From the NCBI RefSeq assembly GCF_963921235.1, contig NC_086097.1:76200001-76264000 (forward strand): a stretch of DNA of 64,000 nucleotides, in the 5' to 3' direction. Positions within the stretch are counted from its first letter, which is position 1; every line of letters begins with the position of its first letter. The stretch comes from Mobula hypostoma (taxonomy: Eukaryota). Of the stretch, positions 690 to 59,400 are shown in pieces. The notes beneath the pieces were generated by a model. It saw nothing but the letters and a program-made list of their open reading frames with translations, was not told the origin of the DNA and ran no database searches. The position numbers and the translations under genes are program-made.

Positions 690-2555
690 TGAAAGTGTTT
701 TGTTAGTGATTTTCATTCATAGTGTCTGAGGCTTCTTGCTTTAATGTCCAAGAATATGTCCTGAGGAAACCATTCACCATGCTCATCACTGACAGTACCA
801 AGATGTGCAGGGAGGAAGTCTAAATGGGAATGCATAAAATAAATCTTCAGTGACTTGTTGCACTCATGGTTTTGTACGCTGGAAGCATGTTGTCAACCAT
901 GTTGAAGCATGCAGCTTGGTGCTCTGTAGTTGCCAAAAAAAAAATTTCAACAACATCCGTGAATACCTTCCATGAAATTTTCTCTGGTCCCACTAGAAGT
1001 TCTTCCAATTGCCTGTCACTGCTGACCTGTTTGACTTGTGGACCAATAAAAATGCCTTCCTTAATTTTGGTATCAGTTACTCAGGGAAACATTTGTCTAA
1101 AGTATCAAAATCTTTCACCTTCCTTGTTTATTGCTTTCACAAAAATTTTCATAAGCTCCAGTGTTACAGGAAGAGGAGGCAAAAATATCTTTATTGAGTC
1201 TACAAGTGGCTTATGTGCCACAATTTTCTTCTTGGTGGCTTTGAAAGACAGAAATTTTTGTGCCTGCTGACAGCAGATTCCATCCTTGCAGTCTTGAACC
1301 TAGTAATTCTGCTTTTGACTTTGACAAAGCCAAGTCTCTGACCACATCATTTCACTCAGATTGAGTTATCAAAGGAGTCTCACTTGACATAACGGGTTCA
1401 AAATCTGTATCAGTATCAGTGTCATTTTCCATTCCTGCCTCATGCATCATGACATTGTTTCCTGCCTCCTTTAGACTCATGTCTCTGGTGGCTTTGGTAC
1501 TGGAAGGCTATCATCATGTGGCACAGCCTGAAGTTGGGTTATTCAATGGACTTCTTGTTTTTAGCAGAGAAACCAGACGCACTGGTCAGACAGAAGTAGC
1601 AGTCTTTCACATGATCTGCTCTCGCTATATCATCGGGACTGCAAATGGCATTGATTTCCGAGTACCTCTGAGCCAAGCTCTAAGATCGACAATGCTTGTT
1701 GCACAACAAATGTGAGGAGCCCAGGCTTTGTCTTGGTCGTCAATTTTACACCCAAAGTACAGCTCATAGGCTTTCTTAATAAGAGAAGTCATGCTCCATC
1801 TTTGAAATTAAGCAAATTTTGCCAAAAATGTTACAGAAAGTATCATGCCTGTTGCAACATTGGCAAGACATTCTGCTATCACAAATTCTCCTGAAAATGC
1901 AATTACTTTATTATAGTGAGTACACAAAATATGGTATGCATGTAGAGCATGCACATCAACATGATCGTAAACTGATATACATGTAAACACAATGCATAGA
2001 ACGGTGTGTGTGTGTGTGTGATGCTTTTATAGCCTTTCTAAAAGCTGTGCTGCCATGCAGCATCCACCCTGCCTAAGCATGCCCAGACATAACTGAACAA
2101 AATAGAAAACTTTAACAACAGGAATTCTGCAGATGCTGGAAATTCAAGCAACATACATCAAAGTTGCTGGTGAACGCAGCAGGCCAGGCAGCATCTGTAG
2201 GAAGAGGCGCAGTGGACGTTTCAGGCCGAGGCCCTTCGTCAGGACTAACGATGTTAGTCCTGACGAAGGGCCTCGGCCTGAAACGTCCACTGCGCCTCTT
2301 CCTACAGATGCTGCCTGGCCTGCTGCGTTCACCAGCAACTTTGATGTATGTTGCTTAAAATAGAAAACTTTCCAGCTTACATTGTGGGCAACATTTTAAT
2401 TCACTTGAATTATGAATTGAAACAACAAATATAAATGATTTCAAAAGAAATGGAGTGTGATAGGGGAATTTCATGGTGATTTTCCTGATCAGCAGCCCAA
2501 ACTTCATAAGATACATCTGAAACTATTCAGGAATTAAAACCTTTGTTGTCTAGTG
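690..2555 (-). mobile_element. Chapaev3 (CMC superfamily) DNA transposon, decayed transposase with internal deletion
   Basis: Minus-strand fragments: KKAYELYFGCKIDDQDKAWAPHICC..AWLRGTRKSMPFAVPM, DHVKDCYFCLT, VPHDDSLPVPKPPE (1480-1790); KIKEGIFIGPQVK (about 1030-1070); CNKSLKIYFMHSHLDFLPAHLGTVSDEHGEWFPQDI (about 755-865). 5' terminus CACTAGACAACAAAG at 2555. The 3' terminus was not seen, so the left boundary is approximate. Confidence 0.85.
2114..2356. mobile_element. Penelope-like terminal-repeat hairpin insertion, nested in the Chapaev3 element
   Basis: Perfect inverted repeat 2146-2249 / 2253-2356 with loop GAT. 15-bp TSD AAAATAGAAAACTTT at 2099-2113 and 2357-2371. Homologous to the 3' terminus of the GIY-YIG element at 5130-6065. 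Confidence 0.9.
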
Positions 2556-2959
2556 TTATCTTTACGACCAAGTAAAGCAGAGAATGCTTTTTAACAACCC
2601 AAGATCAAGGAGAAATTTTCACAGGAAACATTGCATGTCAGCTTGGCGTTAGCTAGATGGTTGCAAAAACATATGATGTAGATGATAGATTTTGAAATAC
2701 TCGCAGATTTGCTGTACACATCAGTGCTTGGATAATAAAACGTTGGGCCAGTTGGCTTTGTCTTTGGTTTGCTTAACTCTTTTCTTCCGTTGTTTGTGAG
2801 TGCACAATGGATATTTGGTGATAACAGTGAAAGCTGTATTTTGTTTAGTGCTTCCATGAAATTTGTTTGCAATAAACATATTTTCTATATATATATAAAT
2901 AATTTAAGTTCATCTGTGAGATATGTCTAAATTATATTTATGCTTCTTAGTTTGTACAG

Positions 2960-3900
2960 AATGTCAGATATATCACCTAAGAAGCAAAAATGTTCAAATG
3001 ATGGAAAAACAACAGAGATTTTCAAGAGTGGTGGAGTAAGAGTTTTGGCACGATTAAAAAGCGTGATAAAGTATTATGCATCCTATATTCTGAATCAGTG
3101 GTCTGCAGGACTTCCTCCATAAAGGAACATTCTGAAACTATTCATAAATGGCTCTACAATGCAAGTAAGCAAGAACAGAAAATGTATTTTTTGAGAAATC
3201 AGCAAGAAAAAAATCCGGTCAAATTATTTTGATGACCTCTATTTCAGGTAAAGCCTTTATCACTCAATTTTGTAGGGAAAATGAAAGATGCAAAGAACTG
3301 GTTAACTTGCTAATGTTAACTGAACACACCACTGGGGTTGAAGTATGTAAGGCAGTTAGTAAAAGACTGGTAGACAAGTTAATCTTTCAAAAATAGTTTC
3401 CCTGACAACTGTTGGTGCATCTAGCGTGATTGATAAGGAGGCAGGTTTTGACAATCTGTTTGCAAAATCTGTTGGACATCCATTGATCAACTTTCATTGT
3501 ATAGTGCACGAGGAGGCTTTTTGTGAAAAAGCTGGCCTCAAGCAGCTTGAAGAAGCGATGAAAACTGAAACTAAGGTAACTAATTTTATTTGAAAAGTAC
3601 ACAATTTCAGAATTTACTGAGTGAGGTGAATTCAGAGTACGCAGGACAACTTATGTACAGCAATGGTCATTCGCTTAGTAGAAGATCTGTCCTTACACCA
3701 TTCGTTGATTGTTTGGATGAAATTTATCTGTTCTTGATGAATGAAAATTTTTCTTGTCACAGAAATGTGATGTTGTGTAGATTTATAGATTGATGCTTTT
3801 GCAGAAACCTCTTCACATTTACATGACTGGAACACCAAATTACAGGGGTTGACAAACGACTTGATGCTATGTCTGATAATATATAAGCCTCTGGGAAGGA
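2960..3900 (+). mobile_element. Decayed hAT (Charlie/Buster, GTF2IRD2/EPM2AIP1-like) transposase
   Basis: Frameshifted fragments RDFQEWWSKSFG..KVLCILYSESVVCRTSSIKEHSETIH; HPLINFHCIVHEEAFCEK (CxxH motif); QFQNLLSEVNSEYAGQLMYSNGHSLSRRSVL..FVDCLDEI (decayed VRWLSRG). Boundaries approximate. Confidence 0.8.
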
Positions 3901-4442
3901 GATCCCTTATTTACTCTCTAACCATGTGATCATGGTGGTACAGATCTACTAATATTAATATTGCAGTATGACCAGCATGAGCTTCAAAGTGATTTGATAC
4001 CACTTTTGGCTCCTGAGCAACGGAGTTCACCACAATTGTAAAGATATCCACTTTTCATACACTTTTTTTTACATCCCAGAATTAGAAAGAAGAGTTTCAT
4101 GCAGCAAAATAATTTCAGATTAAATAAGTATCAACTTGAAATAAGAATATTGGTCTAACTCACATTTCAGAATGCTTTCTACATTTGATTAAATATGATA
4201 ATAGTTAAGCTAGCAGTATGAAAATTATGAAAAGCATACACCATTGAAAAACGCAGCTCCAACAATTTGCTCAATATAAACTCTGATGATAAAGTGTAAG
4301 CTGTGATCATTAAGCACAGAATGAATACTATTAAGTTTAAAAGTATTATTAATCAAACCTCAAAACAGAACAAAAGGAAAATTTCTGTTTATGACCATCA
4401 CCAAATCTGCTTATAAGTCACCAATATCCTTGTATAATAAAC

Positions 4443-4643
4443 ACACATCAAAGTTGCTGGTGAACGCAGCAGGCCAGGCAGCATCTCTAGGAAGAGGTAC
4501 AGTCGACGTTTCAGGCCGAGACTCTTCGTCAGGACTAACTGAAGGAAGAGTTAGCAAGAGATTTGAAAGTGGGAGGGGGAGGGGGAGATCCAAAATGACA
4601 GGAGAAGACAGGAGGGGGAGGAATGGAGCCAAGAGCTGGACAG
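4443..4643 (-). mobile_element. Penelope-like terminal-repeat fragment (single arm)
   Basis: Near-identical to about 5133-5335. 15-bp TSD CCTTGTATAATAAAC 4428-4442 / CCTTATATAATAAAC 4644-4658. Confidence 0.85.
4501..4536 (-). ncRNA. Minimal type I hammerhead ribozyme-like motif (stem II weakened)
   Basis: Minus strand: AGUC CUGACGA A GAGUCUCGGCCU GAAA CG UC GACU. Core and stem I are intact; stem II has an A-C mismatch. Confidence 0.5.
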
Positions 4644-4802
4644 CCTTATATAATAAACTTGATCTAATCAATGCATAAAATTGCTTCAAATGCTTGTTTT
4701 TATTTACCTGAATTAAGTTAAAGACAGCAAGAAATCTGAAGAAAGTTGTGTATCTGAGAAAATTTATAATCAAGTTAACATATGGAGAAGAAAAAATGTC
4801 CA

Positions 4803-4983
4803 ACAAAGAAAACCTGCTGACTTTGACAGTTATGTATGGGGGAAGAACAGACAATTGAAATACAGTGGATGGACAACCTCTGATATCTATACAAAGAAAA
4901 CCTGCTGACTTTGACAGTTATGTATGGAGGAAGAACAGACAATTCAAATACAGTGGGTGGACAATCTCTGATAGCTATACAAA
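4803..4983. repeat. Tandem duplication, 88-bp unit x2
   Basis: ACAAAGAAAACCTGCTGACTTTGACAG...CTAT at 4803-4890 and 4891-4978 with about 5 substitutions, followed by ACAAA. Confidence 0.9.
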
Positions 4984-5129
4984 ACACACTTCTGTGGAGA
5001 TTGTAAAAAAACCAGATGTTAATTCATTGCTCTAACATATTCAGATGTTATACCTTTATGGGTAATTTCCTTCGAGCATTACTATATTTATAATGTAGAG
5101 TAGTCTAAGATAAGGGAAATCAAATTTAA

Positions 5130-6065
5130 GCAACACACATCAAAGATGCTGGTGGACACAGCAGGCTAGGCAGCATCTCTAGGAAGAAGTACAGTCGACG
5201 TTTCGGGCCAAGACCCTTCATCAGGACTAACTGAAAGAAGAGATAGTAAGAGATTTGAAAGTGGGAGAGGGAGGGGGGAGATTCAAAATGATAGGAGAAG
5301 ACAGGAGGGGGAAGGGATGGAGCTAAGAGCTGGATAGTTGATTGGCAAAAGGGATATGAGAGGATCATGGGACAGACGGGAGGTCTAGGGAGAAAGAAAG
5401 GCGGGGGGGCAGAAGCCCAGAGGATGGGCAAGGAGTATAGTGAGAGGGACAGAGGGAGAAAAAGGAGAGAGAGAAAAAAATATTAATAATAATAAAAGAT
5501 AAATAAATAATGGATGGGGTACGAAGGGGAGGAGGGGCATTAACGGAAGTTAGAGAGGTCAGTGTTCATGCCATCAGGTTGGAGGCTACCCAGACGGAAT
5601 ATAAGGTGTTGTTCCTCCAACCTGAGTGTGGCTTCATCTTGACAGTAGAGGAGGCCGTGGATAGATATATCAGAATGGGAATGGGACGTGGAATTAAAAT
5701 GTGTGGCCACTGAGAGATCCTGCTTTTTTTGGCAGACAGAGAATAGGTGTTCAGCAAAACGATCTCCCAGCCTGCGTCGGGTCTTGCCAGTATATAGAAG
5801 GCCACATCAGGAGCACCGGGCGCAGTATATCACCCCAGCCGACTCACAAGTGAAGTGTCGCCTCACCTGGAAGGACTGTCTGGGGCCCTGAATGGTGGTG
5901 AGGGAGGCAGTGTAAGGGCATGTGTAGCACTTGTTCCGCTTACAAGGATAAGTGCCAGGAGGGAGATCGGTGGGGAGGGATGGGGGGATGAATGGACAAG
6001 GGAGTCGCGTAGGGAGCAATCCCTGTGGAAAGCGGCGGGGGGGGGGGGAGGAAAGATGTGCTAGG
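5130..6065 (-). mobile_element. Penelope-like retroelement, 5'-truncated: GIY-YIG endonuclease region and 3' terminal repeat
   Basis: PPGTYPCKRNKCYTCP..SFQVRRHFTCESAGVIYCARCS*CGLLYTGKTRRRLGDRFAEHL..LEEQHLIFRLGSLQPDGMNTDLSNFR* (final stop 5540-5542). 10-bp TSD TCAAATTTAA at 5120-5129 and 6066-6075. Confidence 0.92.
5193..5228 (-). ncRNA. Minimal type I hammerhead ribozyme motif in the Penelope-like terminal repeat
   Basis: AGUC [CUGAUGA] A GGGU-CUUG-GCCC [GAAA] CG [UC] GACU: stem I AGUC/GACU, conserved core, stem II, self-complementary ACGU in place of stem III. It lies in the sense orientation downstream of the ORF. Such motifs are known from Penelope-like elements. Confidence 0.7.
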
Positions 6066-6784
6066 TCAAATTTAAAATAATTACAGAGCTTGAATTTTAA
6101 GAAATTGATTTTTTAAAAGTCTACACAAAAGTCAAATTTGCCCTTTTTCAATATATGTTAAGGAACTAAAAGATGATGTGCACATCTGCCTTCCCGTGTT
6201 ATGTAGGTCTATGCAATGTTTTTTCTTAAACCATTTATTGCTACCATCTGCTAGTGCAAAAGCCACAATACTTGAAATTGTTGTTGAAAAAAACATGTTT
6301 TTGTATACTTTTGTCAAGTCTATTTTATCTCCGATCAAATTCCAAATAGAGATTTTGAAAATTACACGTCTCCCTTCCCCCACATATGCCCGAATAGTAA
6401 TAATTTGCAAACCATTTGTTTAATCTGTTGTTCATGTACAACATTAGTTGCCAAATCATTTAAAGTCCTTCCTCGTATTCTAAGTCTGATAGTGGCAGTT
6501 TTTGGCTAGAAAATTTCTTAGAAGGGGAAAATATATAAATAGTGTTCAATATGCTGTGCAATGGGGGACACTCCTATGACTTGTCCCAGGACAAAATAAT
6601 CAATAATCCAGTGGTCAGAAGTTATTTCACAGATCTTAAGATTGGCCTTAATTTTCAATTTTAGAATTTCAGGTTGTAAATTCTGAGCTGCAAATATTTT
6701 TCATCAATTATCTTTCTTTACACCTAATTACGTACATCAGACGCCCCAAAACAATCATTGTCCTCAGTTAATGCACACATGAAT

Positions 6785-7056
6785 ATTTATTTACTGTATT
6801 GAGGTACAGTGTGGAACAGGCCGTTCTGGCCCTTCGAGCCACACCTCCCAGCAAACCCCTGATTTAATCCTAGCCTAATCGAGGGACAATTTACAATAAC
6901 CGATTAACCCACCAACTGATGGACTGTGGTGGGAAATCTGAGCACCCGGAGGAAACCAGTGTGGTCACGGGGAGGACATACAACTCCTCAAGAGGCAGTG
7001 GCGGGAATCAAACCTGTGTCGCTGGTACTGCAATGTGTTGTGCAAACCACTAGGCT
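6785..7056 (-). mobile_element. tRNA-derived V-SINE (HE1-like)
   Basis: GAGCACCCGGAGGAAACC..GGTCACGGGGAGGACATACAACTCC (V-domain, reverse complement), B-box-like GGAATCAAACC, and CR1-like tail GGAACAGGCC..GGCCC. Confidence 0.75.
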
Positions 7057-7799
7057 ATAATTTTGATGCAAGTAAAACTAGATTGCATATTAGTTTGGCT
7101 TTGAGTGTGTGCATTGCTAACACCTTTTACTGGAATGCAGTTGGCAGTCAATGACATCTACTTGTGTGCAATGTTAGTATGAAACCAATGCAATGAAAAT
7201 GAAATAAATACTCTAGTTTGTATCGTCTCTTAACAGTGTGCAGCAGAACACCAACTCAGCAGCAGGAAAAATGATCATCTACTTGCAAGTTAATTATTAA
7301 TTAATTCTTACTGGTTGCTCTTATGATCTACAAAGGTTTGGCACGTTCAACATTTTTTATAACCTTTAAAATATATTGGAAATGATATGCCAGATGTTGT
7401 TTTGACTAAGCTTCTACATGAAAGTACTACTAGACATCCAACTACGAACGTAAGAAGAATGAACGGAGGTTATGCACAGCAGGAAAAATTGCTTGAAGAG
7501 TGGAGGAGAATGCAGAGCACGGCTCTTAGTGGAAGGCCAAATCCACACAAGGTGTTCATGGAGTATTTTCCCCATTGGAATCTCAGCATTGAATAGTCAG
7601 TGAGATTTCTGGATTTCAGTAGGAATAACCCCATTGAATTATACCTCCTGCTACTGCCCAAACTATAATCGTTTCATTGGATGAGGCTGTCAAAGCTACT
7701 GTGGGCTGAGCTGGAGAAATTTGAGACATCTCACAATTTGCCATCTACCTTTGGGTAAAGTCAGTTATTCAATATAACAAAATACAACAAATTCTCATT

Positions 7800-8400
7800 T
7801 GTCATTGTCGCCTGGGGGAGCAACCCAGAAGATTATTGATTCTCCTTTGGAGCAGGATACTACTGACTATTCCACCTGGATAGTCTGCAGTCCCACAGCT
7901 TGAAGATTAAATTCTCCATCTTCTGGTGAACTGTTCCCACTATGACCCTTTCTTTCTCCTCCTGATCTACAGAGATTGTTTCGCACTCACAAAGCCACCA
8001 ATACCCTATTTCTTCTTCATCTTCCACCCACTCCATTTGCCCATCACCCATGCACTCCTCCCACCGATTCTCCTCCTGCAATGTTCCCATTGGCCCTTTT
8101 CACCTTCTTCACTTGGTTCATTTCATGCTCTACTTCCTCTCCTATCAGATTCATTATCTTCAGACCTCCACCTATCACTTCCTAGCTTCTGCTGATATTT
8201 CCATTCTTCCCTCTCCCATCGCACTCCTCCTCTGGATTCACCTATTATTTAAAAGTTAATGTCTCGCCCCTCTTCTTTCCCCTTTAATCAGGCTACATCC
8301 CCTCTATCCTTCAATCCAGTGAACATCTTGACCCAAACTGTTCACTGTCCATTTCATTCACTGGTAACTGCCTGGCCTAATGAGTTCTTCCAAAATATTG
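7800..8400 (+). mobile_element. Old Penelope-like element 3' end
   Basis: LFHLDSLQSHSLKIKFSIFW* resembles the C-terminus at 5540-5620. It is followed by a pyrimidine-rich UTR and a decayed terminal repeat (CCAGTGAACATCTTGACCCAAACTGTTCACTG..CTGCCTGGCCTAATGAGTTCTTCC). Confidence 0.65.
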
Positions 8401-8754
8401 TGACAACTTTTGTTGTCTTCATTCCACAGCAGCTTGTTGTGCTAATGTCTTTTGACCTACAAAACCAGTCAAGACGTGTTTGTCGGGCCACAAAGACAAG
8501 CTGACAACGACATGGTTTCTGATTCAAACATACCCAGAAACATGCAAGTCATGACTGCCACTCTGCAAAATAAATGTGACCAAACAGATTACTGGTGCAC
8601 TGAGACAACAAATTGCACTCTGGACCATGGTGGAGGAACTCTGGAATACTCCGACTGGTTAATTCAAGATTCCTGGTGGTCTGCTGTGGGCTGTGCAACT
8701 TTGTCATCATTAATGATCAGACCCTGCCTGTAGAAGATAAATGGAAAGTAACCA

Positions 8755-9400: not shown

Positions 9401-9455
9401 TATAATCTTTCTGACATTTTCTTGTAGACTTATTTAACCTATCTATGTCATTTTG

Positions 9456-10289
9456 GGAATCAAAGTTGGCAATGAAAATATCAATAATTTCAGATATGCA
9501 GATGACACTGTGTTAATTGCAAGTATGGAGGAAGAACTACAAAACTTAATTGATATAATTGTTGAAGAAAGTGCAAAAATGGGTCTATCTATCAATTGCA
9601 AAAAGACAGAATGTATGGTGATATCCAAAAAGAAGGAGAATCCCACCTGCAGGCTGAGAATAAATGGGGAAGACATAAAACAAGTACAGAACTTTTGCTA
9701 CTTAGGAAGCTGGGTGACATCAGATGACAGGTGTGATATGGATATCAAAAGAAGAATAGGGATGGCAAAAGACACCTTTACGAGAATGAAGACTGTACTA
9801 ACCAATACTAAACTAGGCATGACAACCCGCCTCAGAGCACTGAAATGTTATGTTTATCCGGTTATGTTATATGGCTCAGAATGTTGGGCAATATCTAGTA
9901 ACATGAGGAAACGAATTGAAGCAGCAGAGATACAGCTTTTGAGGAGGATGGAAAAAATATCATGGATGAAACGAATATCTAACAAGGATGTCATGAACAG
10001 AGCAAACACAAAAAGAGAAACAATGTATGAGATCATGAAAACAACGTAACTTCATTGGACATGTGATTAGGAAAGAGGAGTTAGAATGCACTGTAATTAT
10101 GGGAAATATTGAAGGGAAGAAAGCAAGAGGAAGACAAAGACAAATGATGATGGAGACGGCAGCCAGAGAACTGGAAATGAATACAAATGAATTGATCCAC
10201 TTGACCCAAAACAGGAGTGTATAGGCCACGGCAGTCAAAGCTCAAACTGGGCATGGCACCTGATGATGATGATGATGAAGATGAAGATG
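9456..10289 (+). mobile_element. RTE-clade LINE, 5'-truncated
   Basis: ORF with INNFRYADDTVLIA, GLSINCKKTECM, FCYLGSWVT, RRIGMAK, LYGSECW. (TGA)n tail 10261-10290. 11-bp TSD ATGTCATTTTG at 9445-9455 and 10290-10300. Confidence 0.93.
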
Positions 10290-10404
10290 ATGTCATTTTG
10301 TAATCATGCTTTGTGTTCTACCTAAGAGTCAGTTTACCACCTAGATATGCATGTCAGTAAACTTGAGTCTGTCACACTGTTCTTCCCTTTAACTTATCAA
10401 TGTA

Positions 10405-10602
10405 CCAAGTATCCAGACCTTCTCGGTTTTTTTGCACTACCTTACTTTCCTTTTTCTATTTTCTATTTATGGTTTATAATTTAAATTTTTAATATTTACT
10501 ATGGATTTGTACTCCAGGGAGCACAAAGCGCAGAATCAAATATCGCCGTGATGATTGTAAGCTCTCGTATTAATTGTTTGGCGACAATAAAATAGTAAAG
10601 TA
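10405..10602 (+). mobile_element. LINE 3' UTR fragment, probably Rex1/Babar
   Basis: TTTTGCACTA..TTTGTACTCCAGGGAGC..GCGACAATAAA followed by an (AGTAA)n-like tail. Confidence 0.45.
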
Positions 10603-19479: not shown

Positions 19480-19851
19480 AAACTCAAGAGATTCTGCAGA
19501 TGCTGGGAATCTAGAACAACGCACACAAAATGCTGGAGGAACTCAGCATGTCGGGCAGTATCTAAGAAGGTGAATTAACTGTTGATGCTTTGGGCTGAAG
19601 CACCTTAATCAGGGCTGGAAAGGAAGGGGGCAGAAGTCAGAAATCTTTCCCCTCACCTGGTCTCACCTGGTCTCACCTATCACCTGCTAACTTGCTCTCC
19701 TTCCCCTACCCCTACCTTCTTATTCTGGCTTCTGCTCCATTCCTTTCAGTTCTGAAGAAGGGCCTCAGCCTAAAACACTTACTGCTTTTTCCCCTCCATA
19801 GATGCTGCCTGACTTGCTGAGTTTCTCCAGCATTTTGTATGTGTTGCTCTA
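19480..19851. mobile_element. Older Penelope-like terminal-repeat inverted pair
   Basis: Left arm 19480-19642 (minus sense), right arm about 19650-19850 (plus sense). 14-bp TSD AAAATCCAGGACAT 19466-19479 / AAAATCCAGAACAT 19852-19865. Confidence 0.8.
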
Positions 19852-19929
19852 AAAATCCAGAACATGTTGCCTATATGCACTGCTTTTCTTCAAATTGCTA
19901 GAAATTAGTATTTCACTTCATATGCACTG

Positions 19930-26200: not shown

Positions 26201-26346
26201 GCTCAAAGTAGAAGATTTATTTCTGTGTTTAACTTTTGGGGCATCCCTTATAAAATATTTCATTCAATAAATGGAGGTTATTGCAGGAAGGTTGTTAAAA
26301 TGGGAAGTGGTACTAGAGATGATAAAATGGATCAGGCTGAGATGAG

Positions 26347-27422
26347 TTTGGTGTGGCAGTGGACGTCAGATTAGATGGCAACCTCTTTGACATCAGGAGG
26401 CTCCACACAACTACCAAACTCCGAAGAGAGCGGGTCCTGGAGCTGCAGTATACAGACGACTGTGCTCTTGTGGCCCATACTCCGGAGGATCGTCAGACTG
26501 TCTTTGCCGTGGCGGTGAGAGCGTACAGCAGGATGGGGCTGACTGTCAATACCACCAAGACAGAAGTGGTTTGCCAAAGGAGTACCAGTGTCCCACCCAC
26601 TCTACCTGCCTTCACTGTTGGTGATGAAAAGCTGTCAGTAGTCCCATCTTTCACATACCTGGGGAGCATTCTCTCTGAGGATAGCGGCATTGGCAACGAC
26701 ATCCAGAGCCGCATTAAACAGGCATCAGCTGCCTTTGGGAGACTTCAGCATAGAGTCTTTCAGAACAGGAGCCTTCGTCCCTCCACAAAAGACGCTGTAT
26801 ATCAAGTGGTCTGTGTCACCACCCTCCTTTATAGCTGTGAAGCTTGGGTAACCTGCAGCTATCACATCAAGTCCGTGGAGCGCTTCCACATAAGCTGCCT
26901 CCATCGCATCCTGGGAATTACCTGGCGTGAGCGGGTGCCTCACACTGAAATACTTGTAAAGACCAACTGCAGAAGTATTGAGGCCATGATCACCCAGTGT
27001 CAGCAGCAGTGGCTGAGGCACGTGATAAGGATGCCCCCATGTCGGCTACCCTGCAGAGTGTTATACGTCCAGCTACATCATGGTTGACGCTCAGCTGGAA
27101 GTCTGAAGAAGTGCTATAAGGATCAGATGAAGAATGCTTTAAGGAAGTGCAAGATCAGATCTGAGGACCTGGAGGATGTTGCTGCTGACCGTACCACTTG
27201 GCGACAGGGATGGGGTTCGTATTCTGGCGATGGAAAGACCAACCAGAAGACAGCACAAGAGAGCCAGGAGAAATGCAGCCATGGTTGCCACCACTACTAC
27301 ATATACATGTCCCACCTGCAATAGAGCTTGTGGGTCCAGGATAGGACTATGTAGTCATCAAAGATCTCACCATTAAAGGAGTGGACATTGTCATCGGATT
27401 TCGATGGACAACTGAATAAGAA
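26347..27422 (+). mobile_element. RTE-BovB-like LINE, 5'-truncated
   Basis: DGNLFDIRRL..ELQYTDDCALVAH..GLTVNTTKTEV..FTYLGSILS..RIKQASAAFGRL, and C-terminal zinc finger YTCPTCNRACGSRIGLCSHQRSHH. Short tail CATCGGATTTCGATGGAC..GAATAAGAA. Confidence 0.92.
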
Positions 27423-28583: not shown

Positions 28584-29738
28584 AGATGGGTGATTGGTAA
28601 GTGATTGGTAAGTTTGTGGCCTAAGGTAGAAGTATGTAAATGTAGGAAAAATGTAGTAAGTGTATTTTTCTTACATTTACACACTTAGTCCAGCAGTCTT
28701 GGAGCATACGGATCCCTTCTCTGTAGAAGTTGGCATCTTGGTCCTCAAGAAAGTGGTCCACAGCAGGGGTGATTGATAAGTTTGTGTCCTAAGGTAGAAG
28801 GAGATGAGTTATTAACTTCAAACTTTCTGCATTTTCACTCAAAGAGTTGAACTGCATGTGCATGTAACAAGAGCGATATAACTCATCTTCTTCTGCCTTA
28901 GGCCATGAACTTATTAATTGCCCCTGCTATGGACCACCTGGAGGTCCAAGATGCTCTTGTTACATGCACATGTAGGTCAACTCTTTGAGTGATAATGCAG
29001 GAAGTTTGAAGTTAATAACTCATCTCCTTCTACCTTAGGCCACAAACTTATCAATCACCCCTGCTGTGGACCACTTCTACAAAGAAGGGATCTGTTATGC
29101 TCCACGACCGCTGGACTAAAAGCTGATTTATACTTCTGCGTCAAATCTACGCCATAGGTATGGTGTCGCCGCGAACCCTATGCAGAGCCTGCGCGGATCC
29201 CTATGCCGTAGCCTGACATGCACCTCACCCAAAATGTAACTACGTGTTGTGGCAACGCAGAACGCAACAACTGTGATTGGTCCGCCTGGGAGCATTGTAT
29301 TTCCTCCTACGCTGCAATAGCTTCCCATTGGCCGACTGAAGGGCAGGGAAGGAACTCTGTCTGCAATGCTTTCCATAAAGCTTTACAGACCTCCGAAATT
29401 ATGGAGGACACATTTCGCTTTTACGAAAAAAGACGCTCGCTTTAAACTTGTTTATCCCGAGAAAAACTACCAGGACCATGAAGCCTTGCATGGGCAGGTG
29501 TGTGCCATGCATGACGTGCCCGAATTGCACAGCGACGCAGACACACCAACGCACAAGTGTAAGTGCTTACAACATGCATTGGCCACTTGTGCAGGTTACG
29601 GCATCGAGTTGACGCAGAAGTATAAATCAGCCTTAAGTGTGTACATGTAGGAGGGGACTATGTTGAAAAATAAATGTGCTAGGTTTTCTAAAATTGACTC
29701 CTTCTACCTTAGGCCACAAACTTATCAATCACCCTTCA
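28584..29738. mobile_element. Mariner-type non-autonomous foldback element
   Basis: Ends GGGTGATTG(G)TAAGTTTGTGGCCTAAGGTAGAAG / CTTCTACCTTAGGCCACAAACTTATCAATCACCC flanked by TA (28582-28583, 29739-29740). Internal inverted repeat of about 124 bp at 28751-28874 / 28953-29076. Confidence 0.8.
29120..29633. mobile_element. PIF/Harbinger-type MITE nested in the mariner-type element
   Basis: 25-bp terminal inverted repeats AAGCTGATTTATACTTCTGCGTCAA / TTGACGCAGAAGTATAAATCAGCCT. 3-bp TSD TAA (29117-29119, 29634-29636). Removing it restores CTGGACTAAGTGTG, the inverse of 28680-28693. Confidence 0.85.
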
Positions 29739-32990: not shown

Positions 32991-33192
32991 CACACACAAA
33001 ATGCTGGTGGAACGCAGCAGGCCAGACAGTATCCATAGGAAGAAGCACAGTCGACGTTTTGGGCCGAGACCCTTCAGTCCTGATGAAACGTCGACTGTGC
33101 TTCTTCCTATGGATGCTGTCTGGCCTGCTGCATTCCACCAGCATTTTGTGTGTGTTGCTTGTATTTCCAGTATCTGCATATTTCCTGGTGTT
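32991..33192. mobile_element. Penelope-like terminal-repeat hairpin insertion
   Basis: 69-bp arms 32991-33059 / 33086-33154 with 2 mismatches and a rearranged apex. 16-bp TSD TGAATGTTTAAAGTAT at 32975-32990 and 33193-33208. Confidence 0.9.
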
Positions 33193-38959: not shown

Positions 38960-39250
38960 ATGACTTTAACATTTTTGTGTGTTCTCAATCGCAACCTGCC
39001 CTCATTTCAATACTTTTATGTCTGTTTATTCAGATTTTCTCTAACTGGCCCTGCTAACTCATTGACAGCATGAACTCATTTACTGCTCATCATCAGAACT
39101 ATAACCGTAACCTCACCTTATCAGAGATATTTCCACTCACCCCATCTTGTGATGCTTTCTGTAATTTATAACTAGCTTCCTTTCTCTAATGAAGGATTCT
39201 TGACCTGAAATATTAACTGTTTCTCTTTTCACAGATGCTACCTAACCTGC
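38960..39250 (+). mobile_element. Very old Penelope-like 3' remnant
   Basis: CTAATGAAGGATTCTTGACCTGAAATATTAACTGTTTCTCTTTTCACAGATGCTACCTAACCTGC at 39185-39250 resembles the terminal repeat. The left boundary is a guess. Confidence 0.45.
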
Positions 39251-43595: not shown

Positions 43596-45670
43596 ACAGC
43601 TACATCAGCAAGTGCATCGATGAGGTCACTGTGGCCAAGACCATCACTACACGCGCTAACCAGAGGCCATGGATGACCGCGGAGGTGTGTGCGCTGCTGA
43701 GGACCTGTGACACCGCCTTCAGAGCGGGCGACAAGGCAGCCCTAACAACAGCGAGGGCCAATCTGTCCTGGGCCATCAGAGAGGCAAAGCGTGCACACGC
43801 CCAATGAATCCACGGCAACTTCCAGGACAGTGGTGACACGCGGCGCATGTGGAAGGGCATTCAGGACATCCAGGACATCACCAACTACAAGACAACACCA
43901 CCTGCCTGTGCCGGTGATGCCTCCCTCCCAGTTGCGTTGAACAACTTTTACGCTCGTTTTGAGGTGGAAAATGATGTGGCGGCGAGGAAGACCACCCCTC
44001 CTCCGAATGACCAGGTGCTGTGTCTTACCGTGGTTGAAGTGAGGAGAACCCTATGCAGGGTCAACCCACGGAAGGCTGCTGGACCAGGCAATATTCCTGG
44101 CAGAGTGCTTAGAGGATGCGCAGACCAGCTAGCAGAGATTCTCACTGACATCCTCAACATCTCCCTGTGCAGCGCCATCATTCCTACGTGCTTCAAGGCG
44201 GCCACCATCATCCCCATGCCGAGGAAGTCTTCAGTGTTCTGCCTCAACAACCACCGTCCCGTTGCACTCACATCCATCATGAAGTGTTTGGAGAGGCTCA
44301 TCATGAGGCACATCAAGACCTTGCTGCCCCCCTCACTGGATCCCCTGCAGTTCGCGTACCGTCCCAACCATTCAACAGATGACGCCATTGTCATCACCCT
44401 CCACCTGGCCCTAACCCACCCAGACAAAGAAGACACGAACGTTCGAATGCTGTTCATAGACTTCAGTTCAGCACTCAACACAATCATTACTCAGAAACTG
44501 ATTGGAAAGCTGAGCCTACTGGGCCTAAACACCTCCCTCTGCAACTGGATCCTAGACTTCCTGACTGGGAGATCTCAGTCAGTCCTGATTGGAAGCAGCA
44601 TCTCCAACGCCATCACACTGAGCACGAGGGCACCCCAGGGCTGTGTGCTCAGTCCACTGCTGTGCACTCTGCTGACCCATGACTGTGTTGCAACACACAG
44701 CTCGAACCACATCATCAAGTTCACCAATGACACGACCGTGGTGGGTCTCATCAGCAAGAATGACCAGTCAGCATACAGAGAGGAGGTGCAGCAGCTAACA
44801 AACTGGTGCAGAGCCAACATCCTGTCTCTGACTGTGAACAAAACAAAGAGATGATTGTTGACTTCAGGAGGACACGGAGAGACCACTCTCCGCTGAACAT
44901 CAACGACTCCTTCATAGAGATTGTTAACAGCACCAAATTTCTTGGTGCTCACCCGGCGGAGAATCTCACCTGGTCCTTCAGCACCATTTCCATAGCAAAG
45001 AAAGCCCAGCAGCGTCTGTACTTTCTGCGAAGGCTGAGAAAAGTCCATCTCCCACCCTCCATCCTCACCACATTCTACAGAGGTTGTACTGAGAGCATCC
45101 TGAGCAGCTGCATCACTGCCTGGTTCGGAAATTGCACCATCTCGGATCACAAGACCCTGCAGTGGATAGTGAGGTCAGCTGAGGAGATCATTGGGATCTC
45201 TCTTCCTGCCATTACAGACATTTACACCACCTGCTGCATCCGTAAAACGAACAGCATTATGAAGGATCCTACGCACCCCTCATACAAACTCTTCTCCCTC
45301 CTGCCATCTGGCAAAGGGCACCGAAGCTTTCGGGCTCTCACGACCAGACTATGTAACAGTTTCTTCCCCCAGGCCATCGGACTCCTCAATACCCAGAGCC
45401 TGGACTGACACCAACCTACTGCCCTCTACTGTGCCTATTGTCTTGTTTATTATTTATTGTAATGCCTGCACTGCCTTGTGCACTTATGCAGTCCTGGGTA
45501 GTCTGTAGTCTAGTGTAGTTTTTGTGTTGTTTTACGTAGATCAGTATAGTTTTTGTATTGTTTCATGTAGCACCATGGTCCTGAAAAATGTTATCTCATT
45601 TTTACTGTGTACTGTATCAGCAGTTATGGTCGAAATGACAATAAAAAGTGACTTGACTTGACTTGACTTG
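43596..45670 (+). mobile_element. Rex1/Babar LINE, 5'-truncated, reverse transcriptase disrupted
   Basis: ORFs 43847-44854 and 44806-45408: [63 protein letters not shown] (decayed FADD), [31 protein letters not shown] then (GACTT)n tail to 45670. Confidence 0.95.
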
Positions 45671-52621: not shown

Positions 52622-52968
52622 TAGGCAGGCAAAAAAACAGGCCATTGATTTTAGTCGACTTGCACTGAAAGTAGCACGCTTTTATTTTAGTCTTGTGGTA
52701 ATATTTATTTTGTGTTATCTTGTAATATTTTAAAAATATTTTCTTGCAATTTTTAATACTGACAACCATGTGATCTAAATCTGTGATTTCTGCAATACTT
52801 AGTCAAATAGTTTAAGATTAATTTTGTATCATTTTCATGAAGGTAATAGGAATCAAAAGTTTGCTATGAAAATCCAATTACCATTGAAAATGTGTGAACT
52901 CATAAGGAGATGAAATTTACTTCGAGAGGCATTTTGGAAAGAGGCGCAAGACTATATTTCTACATATA

Positions 52969-53061
52969 GTCCTCATGAAGGGTCTTGGCCCAAAATGTCA
53001 ACTCTATTCCTCTCTATAGATGCTACTTGACCTGTTGAGTTCCTTCATCATTTTGTGGAAC
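52969..53061 (+). mobile_element. Short Penelope-like terminal-repeat insertion
   Basis: GTCCTCATGAAGGGTCTTGGCCCAAAATGTCAACT..AGATGCTACTTGACCTGTTGAGTTCC. 10-bp TSD TCTACATATA at 52959-52968 and 53062-53071. Confidence 0.8.
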
Positions 53062-55329
53062 TCTACATATACTTAATAATGTATTTACATATATTTACAA
53101 TGCCTTGAATAGTGAAAGATGAAGGGCAAAGGTAGAGATTTGAATATTTTATTCCCCTTGTTTAACAGGATGAATTGAATAAACAGCACTAAAATCATTA
53201 GCAGCAATTTGGAATGTAGAACCAAATATAATTCAGAGGAATGATATTGGTCCAATTTTAGAATGTTTTATTTGAAAGCATCTGGGCCTATGACCTTGAT
53301 ATTGCTTGCAAATAGAAGCAGTTACAAGACTACAGTTCATTTGTCACTAGAAATTGTAGTCCTGAACCTATTAGGTATAGCAGGCAACATGGTTGTCCGT
53401 ATGTTCCATCACAGGGCCTCCATTGCAGTGCAGCAGCAGAGTGTGGTCTTGCTAAGATTTCCAACTATTTATGCAAGAGAATTAGTATTTAAACCTTATT
53501 ATGGGTTAGATCTAGTGCAAGATCCACATCCTTCATTTCTCTCTCTTTCATCGTAAGACAAAAGTGAAGAAAATAAGGGAGAATGAATTTTAAATTATTG
53601 TAACATTAAGCATTTTAATTTTGCTTAATGTTACAATAATTTCTAACCATTTCAGCTAATTTAGCAATTAATTTTTTAACAAATATTTAGTTCATTGCTG
53701 ATATTGCTCCGAATGTCAGAGACATTCAATATTCCTTCTAGCTTTGACAGCCAGTAATGCTGAGCAAAAGGGATTCCCACTTGTCAAAGCTCTCAGTGTC
53801 ATTTCAGGACAGAACTCTGTGCTACTGGAGTCACTGGTGCTATTCAAACCACAATGTTGGAATTCAGGAAGGTTTGGGTCTGTAGTTTTAACCCAGTTGA
53901 AGTATGTGGGTAGCTGGAGGGTCAACACAGACGTGACTTTCAATTTTAAAGTAACTTTCAGAAGATATCCTATCTCATTTAACCATCTTCAGTGTGAACC
54001 ACTGTGTTTGCCACAACATCTTACATAACACTGAACTAAGCTTCTGTACCATATGTACTCCATCACAAATGCTGCTAGTTCTACCTTGGTAATATTGCCA
54101 GTCTTCACCTATACTTCAGTCCACATGCTGCCAAACTCCCTGTACATTTTATTGATTTCCAGCTTCTATTTCAATTCCTCCTTGATAGCTGTCCTACACT
54201 TCTGCTCTCCCAAGCCATTGTCCATTATTCATCTAAATCCCACTCTTAGCAAGTTCTATTTGATCATCACTCCTCAGCTTGTTGACCTATATTGGCTCCT
54301 GTTCCACAACATTTCAAATTCATAAATATCCTCATATTCAAATATCTTCATGGCTTTGTTAATAGAGGTATGGTATGTATGGCTACCTTTGCCATTTCAA
54401 AGAAATTCATGTTGCATCATAAAGTTTTTATTTGTTCATTTTTCTGGACGAGGGCATTGCAGGTGAGGCCAGTATTTATTGGCCATTCTGTGGGTTTCTA
54501 GCTCAAAGGCAGTATGGCAACAGAATAGACCTATACTGAAAACCACAAATTGTGATGTGTGAGCTTGGCACCACAATCCACATTCATCAAGTTACTGTTA
54601 TCAATTGCTATGTTCTGAAGAGGAATCCAAATGAGAACAACAATCTATCAAAAGGAGATGAAGAAAAACTGCCCCGGGATGCTCCAGTAAAACATCTAGC
54701 CATCATTTCTGTTCACTTCTCTTTTGTAATTCTGAAAGTTCCAAGATTTTTGACCTTGCCAATTTTATTTTAAAATAATTGCAATTATATGAAGATCTAT
54801 CACATTTGAAATTATAAGGGGCATCCGATGTAAAGAATATACTCAAGAATTTCATACTTCTGACATAAATCTTCCATAATATTTCCTTTACAATGGTATA
54901 TGCTTTTATTATAAAACATGGAAGAGATCAGCTATGCATGTCAATTGTATGACACCAATAATTTTGGATTAATTTTCTTTAAACCAGTTTTCAGAGCAGT
55001 CCAATATAGGAATAAGCATTTGTGGATCACTTGCAGGTGCTAGAACTGACTGCAATAATGACAGCAGAATACAGAATTCATTACGTCAAAATCCATCTCT
55101 AATCATACTCATTGAGTCAAAGGACACCAGGCATTTACATTTAAACTCAGGCTTTAGTGGTCAGTAACTAGCCTGGAAGGACAGGAGCAATAAATGTACT
55201 TTTTTTTATAGGGCTGGGGGAGCAGACCTTGATTACCTCCATAGGTCTCCATAAACATCCCTACAACATACAATTCCATTGCTTTGCTGTTGCCTGAAAC
55301 TTCTTCACTTCCTCTGTATTCACTGATGG

Positions 55330-56000
55330 CTTGGTTAAAATTTCCTCACTGAGATGACTGATGTCATTTTGTTTGAGAGCATTATGTTGCCTCATTCTTC
55401 ATAACTTCCACAATTATCACGCCAGATTGAGTAAGGCTGCTCAAAATGTCACAGATTCTTAGCTGAATTATCAATCTGATATCCTCTCCATCACTTCTCC
55501 CCTTTCAACCCTCATCCAATCTTTTGTTACATCTTGTTTTGCTCAAAGTGTGTCTCCTACTTTCAACCTTCTGTAAACTCCAGAGTAAGCAAAACTTTTC
55601 CATATGTATTGTGTTCCGAAGACAGGTCTCACTCACGTAACACTATTGTTGTTGCCAAGCCACATTGAGCCCTTGTCTTCAAACACTCTATAATCCCCAA
55701 GCTTATATCTAAATCTCTGTTCAATAACCTGTATTATTATGCAATATTATTTCTCTACCCTTGGCCTCTCAATTTACTCTTTCCTCCTTCACTCACTACA
55801 GGCAGCTGTTCCTTCTACTCTCTGAGCTTAAAGTTATGGAATCTTTACATAAACAACTTCATCTCCTGTCTTCTTTAAGTATCTTGCGCATAAAATGTAC
55901 CTTATGACTCTTCCTAATATGTGCTCTTTGTATTGACTTCTGTTTTTGTCTGATTGCACCTTTAAGAAGCTCTCTGGGATGCTTTTCCATGTGGAGCCGC
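55330..56000 (+). mobile_element. Old L2-type LINE remnant
   Basis: GGCAGCTGTTCCTTC..TATGGAATCTTTACATAAACAACTTCATCTC..CTTTAAG..AAGCTCTCTGGGATGCTTTTCCATGT. Boundaries approximate. Confidence 0.4.
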
Positions 56001-56554
56001 TGACATCTATTTTACCTATCTGCAGGGAACCACTAAAATAAAATATGTTTTATAAATGTGTGCAATCCAGGGAGGCCTGGCTCTTCAACTGTATACTTCA
56101 GAGACATCTATTGTCTTTTGGATAGATCCCATCCGTGAATTCCTAATGTGTCAGTGGGTGAAGCGCTTTACTTGTAATATGCCATCATTAAACTGGTCCT
56201 GTCCTCTCTATCTGCAACCTGCTTATTTAATGTGTGAACAACCCTAGTAACTACAGGAATGAGTGAACAACATTTACACTTTAGGGAAAAATTGGAGTTC
56301 ATTTCACAGCATTCAGCTTTAGTTTCTCCCTCTGCATTTCATCCTGTGTGATTGAATCCTTTGTTTGATTGACCACAAGTCCCTTTAGATTTTTTTTCTA
56401 TTCTGTTAGCTTTCAAATCATATTTATTGTGTGCTGATGTGGGTTTCCAAAATATTACTTAAGTCCTATTAAGAAATATTATTCAGTTTGAGCTATAACA
56501 CCAGCAATTCATCCTTTTGATAGAAGTACAGCATTACCTGATGGGGAGATAAAG

Positions 56555-56980
56555 GCATGGCACCCTTTCTAGGTGAAGCAGCAATTTAATTTACATCTTC
56601 CAAATTAGTGTCCTGCTACTGGTGCTCACAATGTGGATTCTTAAGCATTGAAAATACGTAAATAGCTGATTATCTAAAATTGCTGAAATCAGCATGGAGA
56701 ATGGAAGGCTATTATGTGCCTAGTTAGAAGATGAAGAGCTGTACTTCAAATATTGAGCTTGAATGTAATGGTAAATGATCAAAGAAAAAGAGGTCTGAGT
56801 GGGAGAGGAATATTAAAGTAATAAACAAATGGAAGCTCAGGGTCAAACAATCTGCCAAGAGGTTAACTAATTTGCATATGGTGTCCCCATTGAAGAGGAG
56901 AGCACAGAGTGAGCATCAAATATAGGACATTAATCTGGAAGAAGTATAAGTAAATGGCTGTTTCACATGGAAACAGTTCC
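56555..56980. mobile_element. Old Penelope-like GIY-YIG fragments in inverted arrangement
   Basis: 56571-56650 (AGGTGAAGCAGCAATTT..GGTGCTCACAATGTGG) is a diverged inverse of 56885-56970. Both resemble the QVRRHFTC..YC..CS..CG coding segment at 5800-5870. Confidence 0.55.
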
Positions 56981-58514
56981 ATATCTCTGATCAAGAGACT
57001 TTCCTGGCTGGAAGTGCAGAATGAATTAGCTTAGATTTGTTTAGAATCCAGAAAATCTGCTTCTTACAAATACTGGAGAGAACATGGGAGGTATGATTCA
57101 AGGCTTTTTTTAAATCATCAAAGAAAGTGACAAAATGGAGGTTCCTGTCTTGTTGATTACTACAAACTAAAAAAACCCCACAAAGGAAACAACATAAGTA
57201 GGTGCAATGGTATGGCCAGTATTTAAGTGGATGCAGACTCATTTGAAAGGTTATGCACCATGAAGCAGCTGAATAATGAATGTGAACATACTGTACATTT
57301 AATTGACAATGCAAGTGAAATGAGTTGCAACTCCTTATTGTTCCATATTTATATTTTCTTAAGACATGAAAGCACCAGCCTTTAATTCAAAAAATGTCTA
57401 ATGGAGATTTTTATATGTTTTTTTACAGCTATACTTTCAATGGAGAAAATGGGGTATTCAAACACTAATGTTGGGATGTGAAATTAAATGGGTTGGATTG
57501 CATTGCTTGAGAAGAACTGTCAGCTAGCTGCAGTGTACAGTCACTGTATATGCCTCCGCATTGCAATATGGAAGGCTGGAACGTGCTGATGGGCAGATGC
57601 TGGTGCATTTGACTGATCTCCCACTCTGCCACTGGACTCAGATGTCACTCAGTGATGTATTCCTCCCCTCAGCGTAATGCCAGTCTTGGCTGACACCGGG
57701 GCACAATCCCATTCATCTGAATGGGTTCACTGATTTGGATGGAAAGACATGTACAAGTAACTTATGTTTTCCTTAGCATTCTTAGCTATTTCCTAATTCC
57801 TGAAAGCCTGTTAAATTCTTAGGACAATCTTGGTTAGGGGTGGGCTATGCTGCAGTACCCAGTTGCTGTTTATATACCGCTTGACTTTGGGAAACAACCC
57901 TGGAGCTTCTCTGATTTGCAGCACTGCAGAGAGCTGGTGTGTCCACATGACTAATATATTAGCTGTGAGGAGGTATTCAGTTGGTGGTGTTCAAGCATGA
58001 GGACAGGGCCTGGTCAAGTTCAGTCTGGACCAATGTAAAAGTATCTTGCATAACTTTACTTCCTCTAAATTCTGTACTTCCTTAAAGGCAGTTAACATCA
58101 TGTCAAATATAAACAACGGAGTTTAAAAGACTACCTTATCAAGAAGGATTTCTGGAAGTCCAGTAACTTGCTTGTTTTTCCAAAGACATTTTTTTACCAC
58201 CTGATTTTCGTTTATCAACTTGTAAATTAGCTTGTGAAGAACACCTTTATACCACATCATTCACTATTGGTTCCATTGTGAAGTTTGTGTGTATCACCAT
58301 CATTCTTGTTGTTAGCATTCAGTCTGAACATTCTTTAGTTTCAGTGGCAGGAATGTATGAAATATTTTAAGCCCATTTAAAATATACAACCTGAATAAAA
58401 AACTTCAGTTTGTCTTCCAATACCAGGAATAATGAAGTTGTGACATGCTGCAGAAAACTGTTTTTGAAATTCTTATATACTAATGAACAGTCTGAAACAG
58501 AGATCAAGAGCAAA

Positions 58515-58880
58515 AAAGGGGCCAACAGTTTATGCTCACAATGCAGTTTAACAGAGCAAACCACTCCCAAGTGCTTCATAAAAAAAGCAGGGCAAGAGGA
58601 AAACCAGACAAGGTATATACAATAATGCCCGCCATTTATTTTTTTTTAAAGCATAGATCACGTAACTTCTAAAATCCAGACAAGGTAAAAGAAAATATAT
58701 AAAAGAATGAAGGGTTACTTTCAAAACTAGAAAGATCTGTTGGAAGATGAGAAGATTTATGGAAAAGACTGTTGACATCTGGCCACGGTGACTAAAGGCC
58801 CTGGCATTCAGGTGAAATACAGGGAGAAGGGAAATACTTAGTTCAGAGTTAGGTGAGTCTGTCAGGTACAACATCGGTTG
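58515..58880 (-). mobile_element. Old L2-type LINE 3' remnant
   Basis: Minus strand TGAAGCACTTGGGAGTGGTTTGCTCTGTTAAA tail, preceded by GCCAGGGCCTTTAGTCACCGTGGCC. Confidence 0.4.
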
Positions 58881-58934
58881 CAATGCATTGATATAATAAT
58901 AGAAATTATTAATCAAATATACAATAGTTTACTT

Positions 58935-59400
58935 ATTGATATTGGTTTATTATTGTCACAGGTACTGACATATAGGGAAAAGCTTTGCCCTTCCTTTCAG
59001 TTCTGAAGAAGGGGCTTGGCTTAAAACATCAACTTCTTATTGATTTCCATAGATGCTACCTGACCTGCTGTGTTTCTCCAGCATTTTGTGTGTTACTCTG
59101 GGTTTCCAGTACCTGCAGTATCTCTTGTGTTTGAGAAAAGCTTTCGTTTGTATGCTCCCTGGACAGATCATTACATACGTACATTACATCATTACACATG
59201 TACATCAAGAAAGTAAAAAGCAAAACAGAATGTAAAATCTAGTGTTATAGTGCAGAGAAGTTGCAGAGTGGGTACTGCAAGGACCACTACAAGATAGATT
59301 AGGAGATCAAGAGTTCATCTTTTAGCATATATGTGGTTCACTCAGGAGTCCAATAACAGCGGGATAGATGTACAACCAGGGAGGAAGTGGTCCTTGATCG
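58935..59400 (-). mobile_element. Rex1/Babar-type 3' end, interrupted by a Penelope-like repeat
   Basis: ATTGGTTTATTATTGTCACAGGTACTGAC..GAAAAGCTTT | insertion | GTTTGTATGCT..ACAGATCATT..GTTCACTCAGGAGTCCAATAACAGCGGGATAG. Confidence 0.6.
58987..59134 (+). mobile_element. Penelope-like terminal-repeat insertion (long form)
   Basis: CAGTTCTGAAGAAGGGGCTTGGCTTAAAACATCAACT..CCAGCATTTTGTGTGTT..CCTGCAGTATCTCTTGTGTTT. 10-bp TSD GAAAAGCTTT at 58977-58986 and 59135-59144. Confidence 0.8.

Follow-up and report, generated by a model that had tools for sequence, protein, structure and literature searches.

A stretch of 64,000 nucleotides from Mobula hypostoma (contig NC_086097.1, positions 76,200,001 to 76,264,000 of the forward strand; the whole stretch is called the window here) contains seven insertions of a Penelope-like element (PLE), three of which are head-to-head hairpins in which one arm runs to a "long" 3' end and the other stops at a "short" one. 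These hairpins probably arose by twin target priming on the element RNA, with one start site, long or short, for each end of the insertion. The features of the window behind this reading are target-site duplications (TSDs), two classes of ends, outward-facing element 3' ends, variable hairpin centres and the remnant of a GIY-YIG endonuclease. The architecture is known, the window itself is ordinary, and most of the two-strand, two-start model proposed here already has direct precedent in the PLE literature.

The insertions, named E1 to E7 in window order, lie where a previous reading of the letters alone (the sequence-only reading) had placed them. Direct repeats flanking each insertion were sought as TSDs and found in 7/7 cases, with the lengths previously claimed, namely 15, 15, 10, 14, 16, 10 and 10 bp for E1 to E7; those of E1 (15/15), E3, E5, E6 and E7 are exact, and those of E2 and E4 have one mismatch each. 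A score of at least 10 was reached by 1 of 3000 random position pairs when the search box resembled that of the TSD search but was narrower. The TSDs are AT-rich, as had been stated (79% AT vs 62% for the window), and all seven copies are genuine, mostly decayed insertions.

Three of the seven (E1, E4 and E5) are head-to-head pairs with both 3' ends pointing outward into the TSDs, again in agreement with the sequence-only reading, and E2, E3, E6 and E7 are single arms. E1, between TSD copies at 2099-2113 and 2357-2371, consists of a long-ended left arm (2114-2249, minus strand), a centre of 3 nt (2250-2252) that matches the upstream sequence of neither arm, and a short-ended right arm (2253-2356, plus strand). 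In E4 (TSD 19466-19479/19852-19865), a long left arm (19480-19644, minus strand) adjoins a short right arm (19645-19851, plus strand), and in E5 (TSD 32975-32990/33193-33208), a short left arm (32991-33076, minus strand) adjoins a long right arm (33077-33192, plus strand). Short ends are also found in the single arms E2 (4443-4643, minus strand, 201 bp; TSD 4428-4442/4644-4658) and E6 (52969-53061, plus strand; TSD 52959-52968/53062-53071), and in E3 (5130-6065, minus strand; TSD 5120-5129/6066-6075), a 5'-truncated element of 936 bp; E7 (58987-59134, plus strand; TSD 58977-58986/59135-59144) is a single arm with a long end. These classes of the single copies are the ones assigned before. The insertion units are tiny (arms of 86-207 bp and the one 936-bp copy), and no full-length, tandem or direct pseudo-long terminal repeat (pLTR) unit was found within the window. 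A repeat is indeed shared by the seven copies, but calling it "the same terminal repeat" overlooks two subfamilies, E1/E2/E3/E5 with 85-100% identity and E4/E6/E7 with 70-84% identity to all other arms (E4 belonging to the older subfamily), as well as the endonuclease coding sequence of E3. The list of seven, although all its members are real, also missed two degraded copies, an arm fragment at 39185-39250 (plus strand; nhmmer E 9e-11, ends approximate) and a copy at about 8231-8402.

Measured from a shared GATRCT anchor, the ends of the 10 arms fall into two groups: four lie 81, 82, 83 and 83 nt past the anchor (long) and six lie at 43, 43, 43, 48, 50 and 51 nt (short), with a 30-nt gap between the classes (p=2e-4 under a uniform null). 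The "two preferred end points" of the sequence-only reading, which are the known PLE tail, hold as a bimodal distribution, with the correction that the short class spreads over about 8 nt and is a zone, not a point. Each hairpin pairs one long and one short arm (3/3), as had been noticed; E1 and E4 have their long arm on the left, E5 has it on the right, and it exceeds the short one by 32, 32 and 38 nt in E1, E4 and E5, respectively, against the 30-40 nt first estimated. Single arms occur in both classes (E2, E3 and E6 short; E7 long). Since both classes occur alone and the short end of E3 heads a 936-nt copy, priming probably does take place at the short end. The motif CCAGYA precedes three short ends by 23-25 nt and the four long ends by 26-29 nt; within the long arms, its repeats are 29-31 nt apart (e.g., 2134-2170), with one before each end class. 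An origin of the tail as a tandem module was considered and rejected, the similarity between the tail and the upstream sequence being non-significant (shuffle p 0.11-0.17).

The sequence-only reading took the hairpins for products of a retro mechanism that merely look like miniature inverted-repeat transposable elements (MITEs), and named a fixed centre with fixed ends genome-wide as the observation that would speak against it; a search for these in the three hairpins revealed three different centres. A MITE derived once from a Penelope hairpin and then amplified would fit the resemblance of E1 and E5 to short terminal inverted repeat elements, but not the three centres, the freedom of either arm to be the long one, the involvement of two subfamilies, the TSDs of 10-16 bp (14-16 bp in the hairpins), or the four single-arm copies, up to 936 bp long, with TSDs of their own. 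The fixed ends, interior and TSD length of a MITE family are absent, which refutes MITE membership for the three window hairpins, and we consider such an origin extremely improbable; elsewhere in the genome it could apply at most to some copies with a common centre. The retro origin itself is established, and the 10 arms and three hairpins of the window display the pattern anticipated for it, that is, bimodal end points, long+short pairs and variable centres.

In the mechanism that we favor, the endonuclease would nick an AT-rich site on both strands, at positions 10-16 bp apart, and each of the resulting 3' overhangs would become a primer for reverse transcription on the element RNA. The presence of a TSD, together with an element 3' end that faces outward on either side, points to staggered nicks with 3' overhangs able to prime. 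At the short site, about 10 nt of the primer would form an imperfect duplex with the RNA immediately downstream. One ribonucleoprotein (RNP), predicted to be a dimer and carrying one RNA or two RNAs of the same donor, would use one site per subunit and so produce the long+short pair. In E1, both arms carry a base at 2214 that occurs in at most 1% of the family depth in X1, one of the sequencing runs considered below, which is consistent with their origin from one donor. The two cDNAs would then stop, often near the 5' edge of the hammerhead ribozyme motif, and host end-joining would link them via a few shared or untemplated bases; single-arm copies would be events in which only one end made lasting cDNA.

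Twin priming in L1 elements was reportedly put forward by Ostertag and Kazazian in 2001. Both L1 twin priming and L1 snap-velcro priming (PMC3649969) have the second target strand priming on the RNA, and primer and template there pair imperfectly over a stretch of about 10 nt, as proposed here for the short site. L1 inversions differ in that they hold non-overlapping parts of one RNA and involve poly(A) pairing, whereas both arms here copy the same segment, so that strand displacement or two RNAs would be needed.

Closer precedent is provided by the purified PAc protein of the lizard Anolis carolinensis (Poseidon_Ac), which cuts and extends both strands and prefers to cut at AT-rich/ATT sites (Frangieh et al. 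2024, PMC11167929). Reverse transcription by PAc starts at two internal sites that bound a tail of about 34 nt, and the two strands are alike in their start site; the start is AC-rich and lacks homology to the DNA that is cut, and a dimer is predicted (PMC11167929). The nicking of both strands, the AT-rich/ATT cutting and the two starts are the counterparts of the AT-rich targets and two end classes observed here. The PAc tail extends from about +56 to +90 relative to the hammerhead cut, compared with +62 to +69 for the short ends and +101 for the long end of E1, counted from the predicted cut site. PAc belongs to the Penelope/Poseidon clade, whereas the window element possesses a CX2-5CxxC linker; furthermore, in contrast to the AC-rich, target-nonhomologous start of PAc, the sense ends here are GU-rich, and at short ends the target resembles the continuation of the RNA. 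The sections of the PAc paper that were consulted do not address the pairing of ends within one inverted insertion.

The layout itself has been described for canonical endonuclease-containing (EN+) PLEs, in which the unit often has a 5'-truncated, inverted copy next to it and a tail of 30-40 bp is often present at one end only (Craig et al. 2021, PMC8557442). Rotifer Pen2a_Av shows the same layout with TSDs of 8-10 bp, and self-priming on an antisense template has been proposed for it (Arkhipova et al. 2013, PMC3846280). With these units, the window insertions share 5' truncation, the head-to-head inverted 5'-truncated copy, the one-sided 30-40 bp tail, a variable TSD and, at the C terminus, a GIY-YIG endonuclease with CCHH (PMC8557442, PMC3846280). 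They differ in TSD length (10-16 bp vs 8-10 bp in the rotifer examples) and in consisting of tiny units without a direct pLTR or tandem unit in the window.

E4 is the hairpin that best separates two-strand priming from its main rival, a snap-back in which the cDNA primed at the long site turns back and serves as its own template, the resulting copy being captured by the second target end through microhomology near the short site. Each arm of E4 contains sequence that the other lacks, namely the tail in the left arm and, in the right arm, about 74 nt of extra 5' body (supported by an nhmmer match to E3); the two arms share only 79% identity. A simple snap-back of a single cDNA cannot produce such a structure, because each arm holds sequence absent from the other. 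We regard snap-back as unlikely, even though it accounts for the long+short pairing, for the complete identity of the E1 arms (104/104 positions) around a symmetric 3-nt loop, for the junction of E5, where the overlap between the arms is 1-4 nt, according to the subfamily from which the upstream sequence is taken, and for the target/element matches at short ends described below. In addition to E4, it is opposed by the three short-ended copies without a long partner, one of them 936 bp long, and by the behavior of PAc in vitro, which extends both strands on RNA and uses both starts (PMC11167929).

In a third scheme, the donor itself is a hairpin, a self-primed fold-back, possibly of an antisense transcript (PMC3846280), whose two strands are cut about 32-38 nt apart prior to joining, so that the tail is the cleavage stagger; "EN-mediated resolution" is the wording used for this idea in PMC8557442. 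This scheme would yield the head-to-head polarity, tails on one side only and an unpaired loop of the kind seen in E4. Nevertheless, both tail boundaries of PAc map to reverse transcription starts on sense RNA, which makes the hairpin unnecessary (PMC11167929), a symmetric junction is seen only in E1, and single-arm copies of both classes would require an extra step; we find a hairpin donor quite improbable.

Using mainly the TSD copy far from each short end as the record of the target, we compared its first 10 nt with the sequence that follows that end in a long arm. For the six short ends, target and RNA match at 31/60 positions, compared with 17.7+/-3.2 for shuffled TSDs (p 6e-5), and at 27/50 positions (p 9e-5) when E6, whose register is uncertain, is left out. 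The true assignment of targets to ends is the best of 720 permutations; with G-U/T-G wobble allowed, the matches rise to 40/60 vs 25.6; and when the register is slid by 1-6 nt (with the left arm of E1 as the reference for the left arm of E5), they fall from 32 at register 0 to 11-24. Contiguous pairs number 8 in E3, 3 in the right arm of E1 and 3 in E2. These matches suggest imperfect primer-RNA pairing at short ends, unlike the non-homologous priming of PAc. Long ends are not fairly comparable because the RNA beyond them lies outside the window.

The two end classes are visible beyond the window as well. Contigs of four runs from four organisms were aligned to the long arm of E1, yielding 53,755 pieces in X1 and 32,413, 7,316 and 8,887 pieces in the others; the end-distribution figures derive from 24 of 799 loose-end rows, and the contig depth profile was left out because it tracks how far the reference itself has diverged from the family. 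The family is very abundant, the 53,755 pieces on one arm in X1 not being a copy number. Among the rows listed, left-side loose ends occur in X1 at 2114 (375 contigs), 2120 (297), 2146 (147) and 2148 (132), and in X5 at 2114 (344), 2120 (288), 2146 (141) and 2147 (168), with long unrelated flanks of low agreement (0.37-0.52). Rows 2114 and 2120 represent the long class, the letters of row 2120 continuing as element sequence to about 2109, and rows 2146-2148 represent the short class. These data support the existence of two preferred ends at genome scale in two organisms (X1 and X5). On the primer strand, the plurality sequence of the flanks is rich in A, with ATTT at the end of the 2146 rows, in agreement with the ATT preference of PAc. 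Pairing of ends cannot be tested with contigs, because they break at hairpins.

Several observations weigh against twin priming that uses one start site at each end. Snap-back or later conversion would explain E1 and E5 equally well, the identity of the E1 arms could itself stem from later conversion, for which palindrome instability provides a route, and the asymmetry of E4 could reflect a later central deletion. The matching test is post hoc, with n=6 and short ends only, and the matches may partly reflect an ATT-type cut preference that happens to resemble the element RNA. In X9 and X10, only long-class rows and no short-class row are present among the rows listed, and the contigs, which break at hairpins, yield only 2 opposite-strand joints. 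Finally, if arms were independent and the long fraction 0.4-0.5, three mixed pairs out of three would have p=0.11-0.125, which is not significant. This last value leaves some room for two independent primings with random choice of the start, the observed pairs being a matter of chance and not of a rule, all the more as the two strands are alike in start site in vitro (PMC11167929); the tail, however, has been published as often present at one end only (PMC8557442, PMC3846280), and we see only a slim chance that no rule exists. Priming of both strands at two RNA positions, as put forward in the sequence-only reading, stands as the best reading and has the precedent of PAc, but it shares E1 and E5 on equal terms with snap-back or a hairpin donor, and an obligate pairing of long with short arms, like the joining of two cDNAs at the centre, goes beyond these data.

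More tentatively, and with less than even confidence, we suggest that the Penelope RNP assigns its two reverse transcription starts to the two target strands within one event, the short site being picked by imperfect overhang-RNA pairing. A literature search whose coverage leaves key older PLE papers outside returned no claim of obligate long+short pairing or of primer-RNA pairing for PLEs. If the suggestion is true, an asymmetric integration complex with two primers would necessarily leave the long+short hairpin as its mark in the genome, and the view of PLE priming as homology-independent would be revised; should pairing between primer and RNA at the short site hold up, it would provide a rule by which PLEs choose their targets and would connect them to telomerase-like priming. 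The literature still leaves open by what route PLEs form inverted units and why they have a tail at one end only, and genome-wide counts of pairing, 5' reach and target/RNA matches could separate the models.

The Penelope-like identity proposed in the sequence-only reading is established by the endonuclease remnant, the linker and ray homologs. E3 contains the C-terminal remnant of an open reading frame (ORF) at 5540-5990 (minus strand), with a C-X4-C-X2-C linker and a GIY-YIG endonuclease with CCHH cysteines, interrupted by one in-frame stop. Located on the hammerhead strand, it reads CKRNKCYTC, followed by GVIYCARCS*CGLLYTG...EHL...HF, with cysteines between GIY and YIG. Among 22 homologs of this ORF, the best are ray proteins from Mobula hypostoma (88% identity) and Hypanus sabinus (84%). 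Homologs P0001-P0004 and P0018 possess reverse transcriptase motifs upstream of the same endonuclease (RVT_1 E 2e-6 for P0018, slightly short of the cut-off); the corresponding part is missing from E3 owing to 5' truncation. In Pfam, GIY-YIG falls below the cut-off for the E3 fragment (E 0.052) and P0001 (E 5e-4) and passes on P0021, which is 45% identical. The C-terminal GIY-YIG with CCHH, the inverted 5'-truncated head-to-head copy, the one-sided tail, the sense hammerhead and the variable TSD are the features of a canonical EN+ PLE.

A CX2-5CxxC linker marks Neptune and Nematis and is absent from Penelope/Poseidon (PMC8557442). In the window element, this linker is CKRNKCYTC, and because it is present, the element appears to be a canonical C-terminal EN+ PLE of the Neptune type under that definition, with Neptune and Nematis left undivided. 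With these groups it shares the linker upstream of GIY-YIG, the cysteines between GIY and YIG, and the reverse transcriptase upstream in close ray homologs. A microsatellite bias has been hypothesised for Neptune (PMC8557442); the seven targets here are AT-rich but not microsatellites. Elsewhere in the window, an older, different PLE-like endonuclease remnant lies at 56557-57068 (minus strand; tblastn 28-31%, E 6e-7) beside an inverted 80-bp piece (56557-56635, 75%); the two seem to be oriented toward one another, which sets them apart from the head-to-head pairs.

When both strands were scanned for the structure, a single intact minimal type-I hammerhead motif was detected, in E3 (5192-5229, minus strand, the ORF strand), so that "hammerhead-bearing" is apt for this copy but not for the other 9/10 arms, which are damaged. 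The E3 motif comprises a 5-bp stem I, CUGAUGA, an extra A, a 5-bp stem II, GAAA, a palindromic ACGU and a predicted cut site at UC. Both arms of E1 and E2 retain the core boxes with damaged stems (in the left arm of E1, the core is at 2215-2242 with a stem-I mismatch), and the remaining six arms are broken; Rfam yielded 0 matches at the gathering score. Minimal type-I hammerheads have been reported in metazoan PLEs, including opposite-strand motifs 100-700 bp apart (Cervera and de la Pena 2014, PMC4209133). E3 shares with them the extra base between 9 and 10.1, G10.1-C11.1, the 5-bp stem I and the palindromic ACGU that replaces helix III; particular to the window are the 5-bp stem II and the damage in 9/10 arms (PMC4209133).

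The 5' starts of 4/10 arms (2249, 2253, 33077 and 52969) lie 0-4 nt from the 5' edge of stem I, and one more, that of the left arm of E5, lies within the core. In E1, both arms start at the same nucleotide, just 5' of stem I; E6 and the right arm of E5 start at stem I. In the latter (33077-33100), exactly stem II is gone through a 15-nt deletion between two GAA trinucleotides, either by reverse transcriptase slippage over the stem or by later loss. Five arms folded no better than their shuffles (z -0.84 to +1.0), and an alternative-stem switch in the arms was dropped as unsupported (pair probabilities 0-0.28).

DNA pattern scans for further copies gave 0 matches in viral contigs, which also yielded none with the homolog P0003 as query. 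A match to a Roseobacter contig, the only one in the prokaryote-genome scan, showed no other similarity and was taken as chance. Metagenome scans first returned 0 and then three loci of a different hammerhead-bearing family, from an assembly of a public metagenome collection: L001 is a head-to-head pair (592-794) for whose arms no TSD was found and which was left out of the pairing count, L002 spans 643-730, and L003 (402-501) is a single arm that has a 12-bp TSD with one mismatch and starts just before the hammerhead.

The window also harbors unrelated repeats. Nested inverted repeats occupy 28601-29734, where a fold-back at about 28685-29119 abuts an element with 42-bp inverted ends (29115-29638), accompanied by partial copies; this cluster looks like adjacent MITE-type elements. 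Broken frames at 2931-3930 include a CIVHEE motif, which we take to recall hAT/GTF2IRD2-type transposases; a Pfam search with four short frames of this suspected hAT remnant (2931-3790) gave 0/4 matches. Remnants of LINE reverse transcriptases are present at 9438-10049 (RVT_1 E 6e-9), 26341-27087 (4e-5) and 43808-45408 (4e-20). An 88-bp tandem duplication (94%) is found at 4803-4983, and an AT-rich palindrome of 51 bp at 53592-53642.

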